Assembly (NCBI RefSeq): GCF_054482525.1 | Contig: NZ_CM137006.1 | DNA: 64,000 nucleotides | Strand: one strand, 5' to 3' | Position numbers and translations under genes: made by a program | The notes under the pieces: model-generated | What the model was told of the DNA's origin: nothing | What the model saw: the letters and a program-made list of their open reading frames with translations, nothing else | The model's database searches: none | Shown: piece after piece, positions 5,718 to 6,614 of the stretch | Layout of the letters: the number at the start of each line of letters is the position of its first letter | Position numbering within the stretch: the first letter of the stretch is position 1

Positions 5718-5853
5718 CTTATCACTAAATGTATAATCTATAATATTTATTTTAATAATTTCTTGTGTTTTCTAATTATAGTATGTTAATCATTTATTGG
5801 TGATGCTGCCAACTTACTGATTTAGTGTATGATGGTGTTTTTGAGGTGCTCCA

Positions 5854-6129
5854 GTGGCTTCTGTTTCTATCAGCTGTCCCTCCTGTTCAGCTACTGACGG
5901 GGTGGTGCGTAACGGCAAAAGCACCGCCGGACATCAGCGCTATCTCTGCTCTCACTGCCGTAAAACATGGCAACTGCAGTTCACTTACACCGCTTCTCAA
6001 CCCGGTACGCACCAGAAAATCATTGATATGGCCATGAATGGCGTTGGATGCCGGGCAACAGCCCGCATTATGGGCGTTGGCCTCAACACGATTTTACGTC
6101 ACTTAAAAAACTCAGGCCGCAGTCGGTAA
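5854..6129 (+). CDS. insA: IS1 transposase InsA
   Basis: 91 aa, [42 protein letters not shown]... matches IS1 InsA. Confidence 0.9.
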
Positions 6130-6551
6130 CCTCGCGCATACAGCCGGGCAGTGACGTCATCGTCTGCGCGGAAATGGACGAACAGTGGGGCTATGTCGGG
6201 GCTAAATCGCGCCAGCGCTGGCTGTTTTACGCGTATGACAGTCTCCGGAAGACGGTTGTTGCGCACGTATTCGGTGAACGCACTATGGCGACGCTGGGGC
6301 GTCTTATGAGCCTGCTGTCACCCTTTGACGTGGTGATATGGATGACGGATGGCTGGCCGCTGTATGAATCCCGCCTGAAGGGAAAGCTGCACGTAATCAG
6401 CAAGCGATATACGCAGCGAATTGAGCGGCATAACCTGAATCTGAGGCAGCACCTGGCACGGCTGGGACGGAAGTCGCTGTCGTTCTCAAAATCGGTGGAG
6501 CTGCATGACAAAGTCATCGGGCATTATCTGAACATAAAACACTATCAATAA
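6048..6551 (+). CDS. insB: IS1 transposase InsB reading frame (expressed as InsAB' by -1 frameshift)
   Basis: 167-aa ORF; ...[28 protein letters not shown]... matches IS1 InsB. Confidence 0.85.
6103..6111 (+). promoter_or_regulatory. IS1 programmed -1 ribosomal frameshift motif (TTAAAAAAC)
   Basis: A6C slippery run at the end of insA, overlapping the insB frame. Confidence 0.6.
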
Positions 6552-6614
6552 GTTGGAGTCATTACCTCATTTATTTAATGAATGGGAGTTTATGAATGGT
6601 TATGTTAATGCCAT

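Follow-up and report, generated by a model that had tools for sequence, protein, structure and literature searches.

The window, by which we mean the whole 64-kb stretch of DNA that was analysed, carries at its left end two convergent blocks of capsule genes, and the spacer between them is occupied by a complete copy of the insertion sequence IS1. The capsule genes are arranged as follows:

within 1-5717, plus strand: serotype-specific region 2, made up of the end of a family-2 glycosyltransferase (GT2) gene, glf, a hexapeptide acetyltransferase gene, ugd and a final GT2 gene
4251-5717, plus strand: the final GT2 gene, last capsule gene of region 2 (Pfam Glycos_transf_2, E=9e-26)
6615-14604, minus strand: region 1, kpsFEDUCS, six ORFs in conserved order
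6615-7856, minus strand: kpsS, last gene of region 1 (Pfam Capsule_synth, E=4.9e-91; NCBIfam KpsS over its full length, E=4e-119)
7891-9918, minus strand: kpsC (Pfam Capsule_synth)
9915-10655, minus strand: kpsU (Pfam CTP_transf_3)
10665-12344, minus strand: kpsD (Pfam Poly_export/SLBB)
12365-13513, minus strand: kpsE (without a Pfam match; identical DNA is annotated as KpsE in RefSeq)
13585-14604, minus strand: kpsF (Pfam SIS and CBS)

The gene at 4251-5717 is also annotated as a GT2 in strains 2452 and AH50, where its nucleotide sequence is identical, and elsewhere in region 2 glf encodes a UDP-galactopyranose mutase and ugd a UDP-glucose dehydrogenase. In strain AH50, which is collinear with the window, two more hypothetical genes and region 3, represented by kpsMT-like ABC transporter genes, are located upstream, beyond the window's left edge. 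With region 1 in its conserved order, region 2 reading toward region 1 and region 3 placed before them, this is, as judged from its sequence, a group 2 (kps) capsule locus. Together, glf, ugd and the acetyltransferase gene suggest an O-acetylated polymer containing Galf and GlcA as the product, and on the basis of polymer structures K53 and K93 are what we take to be the candidate K types. The KpsS allele, of 413 amino acids, is matched over its full length by the NCBIfam KpsS equivalog, but at 398 bits it stays below the curated cut-off, which is 600. The homology of kpsS to the alleles of other K types begins at varying points of its 3′ end (query offsets 54-265), and the sequence suggests that this end of the gene is part of the serotype-variable DNA.

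The IS1 element and its immediate surroundings comprise the following features:

5790-5798, strandless: left copy of the 9-bp target-site duplication, TCATTTATT (direct reading, repeat finder and script)
5799-6566, plus strand: complete IS1 element of the IS1A type, 768 bp (768/768 against the annotated IS1A of MG1655)
5799-5821, plus strand: left terminal inverted repeat (IRL), 23 bp, GGTGATGCTGCCAACTTACTGAT (repeat finder)
5854-6129, plus strand: insA, 91 codons (ORF list, translation and NCBIfam match)
6048-6551, plus strand: insB reading frame, the catalytic part of the InsAB′ transposase (NCBIfam match)
6105-6111, plus strand: AAAAAAC (A6C), the programmed −1 frameshift motif that joins insA to the insB frame
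6544-6566, plus strand: right terminal inverted repeat (IRR), 23 bp, in reverse complement GGTAATGACTCCAACTTATTGAT (repeat finder)
6567-6575, strandless: right copy of the 9-bp target-site duplication, TCATTTATT (direct reading, repeat finder and script)

The original prediction had described this segment as an intact IS1 with a perfect 9-bp duplication, and direct reading, a repeat finder, a script and the identity to IS1A at 768 of 768 positions all support that description; the coordinates given for it, 5790-6575, are exact and enclose IS1 together with both duplications. The two inverted repeats are complementary at 18 of their 23 positions (78%), as found by the repeat finder and by script. 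The predicted product of insA, a DNA-binding protein with a zinc finger and HTH, supplies the transposase with its N-terminal part; it matches NCBIfam transpos_IS1 at E=7.5e-26 and has an IS1/IS1595 zinc domain above its cut-off. When translated by script with a −1 shift at AAAAAAC, the two frames yield an uninterrupted InsAB′ protein of 232 amino acids ending at 6551, the insB part of which reaches 143.7 bits with transpos_IS1 (cut-off 100). Length, inverted repeats, insA and insB′ with the A6C motif, the 9-bp duplication and the identity to IS1A are all, at the sequence level, those of IS1, and the element, whose sequence is intact, is potentially active. Its reference is the IS1A copy of Escherichia coli K-12 MG1655 (NC_000913.3, 19796-20563), which has the same nucleotide at all 768 positions and shares the inverted repeats, insA, the A6C frameshift site and the insB frame; the window copy differs from it only in its genomic location, the spacer of a kps capsule locus, and in its target duplication. 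A second IS1 left end is absent from the 64-kb window, even when three mismatches are allowed.

When unoccupied, the spacer measures 120 bp between the two stop codons, and IS1 is inserted 72 nt past the stop of the GT2 gene and 39 nt past that of kpsS. Gene calls, together with the Pfam and NCBIfam matches, bear out the position first proposed for the element, between the last gene of region 2 and kpsS. IS1 prefers A+T-rich target DNA, and the flanks fit this preference, with an A+T content of 85% on the left and 73% on the right, the corresponding values being 47% for IS1 and 52% for the window. Both neighbouring genes are intact, with their stop codons outside the insertion, and all of region 1 is nucleotide-identical to the IS-free alleles of strains 2452 and AH50.

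A comparison with IS1-free alleles in related strains had been proposed as a check, and it recovers the empty site exactly in both 2452 and AH50. The 9-mer TCATTTATT is present in a single copy at the unoccupied site of IS-free genomes, and removal of 5799-6575, which comprises IS1 and one copy of the repeat, leaves a sequence that matches strain 2452 verbatim. After this deletion, positions 1-15807 of the window amount to 15,030 bp without a single mismatch to either IS-free strain, the first difference from them falling within a neighbouring IS4. Given the local base composition, the chance that nine of nine bases agree at two prescribed positions is about 1e-4; we regard the empty site as the decisive evidence for insertion, stronger than this figure.

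Of 5,426 complete E. coli genomes, 109 match a 599-bp reconstruction of the unoccupied site without interruption, and in 20 of these the identity over the 599 bp is 100%. IS1 with both flanks at one place occurs in none of the 5,426, the left-junction 35-mer is found in none of the metagenome contigs searched, and a chimeric query with IS1 reversed matched only different sites and not the insertion of the window. The two junctions are defined by the 35-mers TAGTATGTTAATCATTTATTGGTGATGCTGCCAAC and GGAGTCATTACCTCATTTATTTAATGAATGGGAGT, and the source genome itself is not among the complete genomes and metagenome contigs to which these results apply. Since the flanks carry no substitution over 15,030 bp and the insertion is absent from 5,426 genomes, the event is best taken as a simple and very recent transposition that is specific to the strain or lineage, and the original prediction, which had called it simple and probably recent, is upheld on both counts.

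The sequence of events would have been that a single IS1A copy inserted into the A+T-rich, 120-bp spacer between the two convergent kps operons, where the InsAB′ transposase cut the two strands of TCATTTATT with a 9-bp stagger, and repair of these cuts copied the 9-mer to either side of IS1, a chemistry that we infer from established IS1 biology. No gene is interrupted and none lies downstream of the insertion in either operon, so that the classical polar effect of IS1 has no target here. Since no coding sequence is broken and nothing follows downstream, the insertion is estimated to be near-neutral, most likely with little or no change in capsule production. Nothing in the evidence contradicts a simple insertion, and taken as a whole a recent, simple and near-neutral insertion of IS1A into the capsule spacer is the best explanation, with a probability of roughly 0.93.

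The explanation that survives best after this one is that the insertion is functionally significant, in that insulation, or antisense RNA from an outward or hybrid promoter, would alter the 3′ ends of kpsS or region 2 mRNA and through them the level of capsule. It draws on the organization of group 2 loci, in which the promoters PR1 and PR3 converge: PR1 gives rise to an 8-kb kpsFEDUCS transcript, from which a 1.3-kb kpsS RNA is derived through processing of unknown mechanism, and transcription from PR3 continues, with RfaH, through kpsMT and on into region 2 (PMC8960920). Because these operons converge, the spacer is the meeting point of two transcription units, one of them read by RfaH-modified polymerase, and along the insulation route IS1 would add between them 768 bp with Rho-dependent polar signals. 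IS1 has the same orientation as region 2, so the RfaH-modified polymerase coming from PR3 would enter it via IRL and read insA in sense. Transcription that runs into IS1 is reported by Machida et al. (Cell, 1983) to lower its transposition activity.

The site had been called a convergent terminator zone, and this label holds in part. The operons do converge (PMC8960920), but the word terminator was an assumption: neither a consensus scan nor RNA folding of the empty allele reveals a canonical intrinsic terminator on either strand of the 120-bp spacer, and the sole terminator-like match of the scan sits inside IS1. The folded empty allele forms A/U-rich hairpins only. Overall, the plus-strand fold does not surpass that of shuffled sequences (z = −0.3); it includes a hairpin, AAUGAAUGG...CCAUUCAUU, with a U8 run 6 nt further on, hairpin and U8 alike lying past the insertion point, within the 3′ end of kpsS. 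For the minus-strand RNA that follows kpsS in the empty allele, folding is modestly better than in shuffles (z = −2.7), and IS1 splits the distal hairpin of this mildly non-random fold, a point in favour of a functional effect. Against this, no canonical terminator is disrupted and no Rfam family is found in the spacer; searches of the occupied and empty alleles return only sub-threshold chance matches to eukaryotic families, so no known sRNA or riboswitch is disrupted.

A promoter-like match does span the left junction on the minus strand, with a −35 element, TTGGCA, in IRL and a −10 element, TAACAT, in the flank; it points into the GT2 gene, to which its transcript would be antisense. An outward promoter of IS1 has also been proposed by others inside a kps locus (bioRxiv 10.64898/2025.12.15.689991). 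Promoter-like matches are, however, no more frequent than expected from shuffled sequences (3 found, 2.9 expected), and a hybrid outward promoter at the left junction is accordingly not claimed. With both coding sequences intact and nothing downstream of the insertion in either operon, a functionally significant insertion is unlikely. The more specific proposal, that IS1 insulates the convergent PR3/RfaH and PR1 operons from each other's transcription, or supplies antisense RNA between them, and so measurably alters kpsS mRNA processing or capsule level, is decidedly unlikely; if true, it would make the window a heritable capsule-expression variant without any coding change.

That the insertion is older, and was brought in along with the K locus when this moved horizontally out of an unsampled lineage, is very improbable. 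K loci are indeed exchanged by recombination (PMC13171598), the window is a mosaic when set against complete genomes, and the collections searched are finite; yet an older insertion fits poorly with the zero substitutions separating 15,030 bp of flank from IS-free alleles, with a duplication that is still perfect and an IS1 still identical to IS1A, and with the lack of any other carrier among 5,426 genomes or the metagenome contigs. That a repeat-induced misjoin placed an IS1 copy in the spacer during assembly is hardly credible: E. coli genomes contain many copies of IS1 (a median of 11 matching places each) and repeats are a classic source of misassembly, but a misjoin would not yield a full-length element that ends exactly at its inverted repeats, nor would it precisely duplicate a 9-bp sequence that is single-copy in the empty allele and leave the flanks perfectly collinear.

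Other IS1 events at kps loci place this recent insertion of IS1A in context. The precedents were taken from joined IS1 and kpsS matches in the complete-genome collection, and for the four simple insertions the 9-mer given is the duplicated target:

ST131 isolate 86 (NZ_OX637961.1): simple IS1 insertion with the 9-mer TTATTTGTT, at the extreme 3′ end of kpsS
AHB24 (NZ_OZ546956.1): simple IS1 insertion with the 9-mer AACATAATT
E70 (NZ_CM173937.1): simple IS1 insertion with the 9-mer TTGAAGGTA, in the opposite orientation, 43 nt from the kpsS stop
1428_w1: simple IS1 insertion with the 9-mer CATTTAGGT, inside kfiD of a K5 locus
NZ_OZ039848.1: gss, IS1 and kpsS in succession, with IS1 at 4001-4768 of the retrieved locus and without a duplication
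U15A (NZ_CP035720.1): glcB, IS1 and a truncated kpsS in succession, with IS1 at 5001-5768 of the retrieved locus and without a duplication

A second ST131 record, NZ_OX637959.1, has the same search coordinates as isolate 86, a correspondence in coordinates only. The insertions in E70, isolate 86 and AHB24 resemble that of the window in consisting of a full-length IS1 with a 9-bp duplication, in A+T-rich DNA, at the junction between the last region 2 gene and kpsS. They differ from it in region 2 type, in target 9-mer and in IS1 subtype (93-99.9% identity), and E70 differs in orientation as well; judged by these sequences they are independent events, none of them at the window's site.

The original prediction had offered two consequences as possibilities, altered 3′ end formation in either operon and IS1-mediated deletions of capsule genes, and for the second of these precedent exists in two other genomes. 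In NZ_OZ039848.1 and U15A, IS1 directly abuts kpsS, capsule regions 2 and 3 are missing along with neighbouring chromosomal genes, and these are probably natural, IS1-mediated adjacent deletions that abolished the capsule. A presumed deletion marked by an IS1 without duplication has likewise been described for the KL112 locus of ST131 (bioRxiv 10.64898/2025.12.15.689991). In all three, as in the window, IS1 is at or beside kpsS, but the window copy is set apart by its perfect duplication, and its flanks are collinear, so the site has undergone no deletion. It could later cause adjacent deletions or recombination, by analogy with other IS1 copies at the junction.

Insertion sequences are common at such loci, at least one being present in 28.2% of the unique sequences of a K-locus survey, in which IS1 and IS3 were the commonest families (PMC13171598). 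As summarised in PMC7711218, region 2 of the E. coli BL21(DE3)/B capsule cluster carries an IS1, believed to block expression of the capsule, with regions 1 and 3 still functional; the window likewise has an IS1 within a group 2 kps locus, but, unlike the region 2 copy of BL21, it is intergenic and disrupts no gene. The possibility that the window comes from E. coli B/BL21 was considered and rejected, as its junction occurs in none of the 5,426 complete genomes.

The insertion is, then, an ordinary and already known kind of event: a known element with known behaviour in a known kind of place. As the junction is absent from 5,426 complete genomes, it provides a unique marker of the strain or lineage, and it adds one more case of IS1 at the A+T-rich boundary between region 2 and kpsS, where related events have lost capsule genes. 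It could matter for K-locus typing, because the element interrupts assemblies there, and for engineering this strain's capsule or tracking capsule loss in evolution.

Beyond region 1, a full-length IS4 with terminal inverted repeats occupies approximately 15297-16722 (1426 bp; 15286-16733 with duplications), flanked on both sides by the 11-bp direct repeat CAATCATCAGG. The element is about 0.7 kb from kpsF, on the upstream side and past the PR1 promoter region. Strains 2452 and AH50 also have an IS4 annotated at this place, from which the window copy differs from 15808 onward, and since both strains carry it there, IS4 is an older, shared insertion, unlike IS1.

The window as a whole is a mosaic, and no single complete genome matches all of it. 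Over positions 1-5798, strain 2452 is among those with 100% identity, 6567-31000 have their best match in AH50 (99.7%), and 39001-64000 are 100% identical to the canine strain 746, whose region 2 differs.

Further to the right are two diverged CP4-like island modules of about 5 kb each, at 17354-22338 and 45295-50252 (89-92% identity). Between them lie an IS100 (istA/istB) and a tyrosine integrase (37403-39204 and 42859-44121); ARAGORN gives no tRNA gene anywhere in the window, which leaves the integrase with no neighbouring tRNA target there. Each module contains genes for DUF4942, a CbtA toxin and CbeA antitoxin, RadC, antirestriction and DUF932 proteins, and the first is followed by an Ag43-type autotransporter gene on the minus strand (22428-25349). 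This arrangement suggests two related islands in tandem beside the capsule locus.
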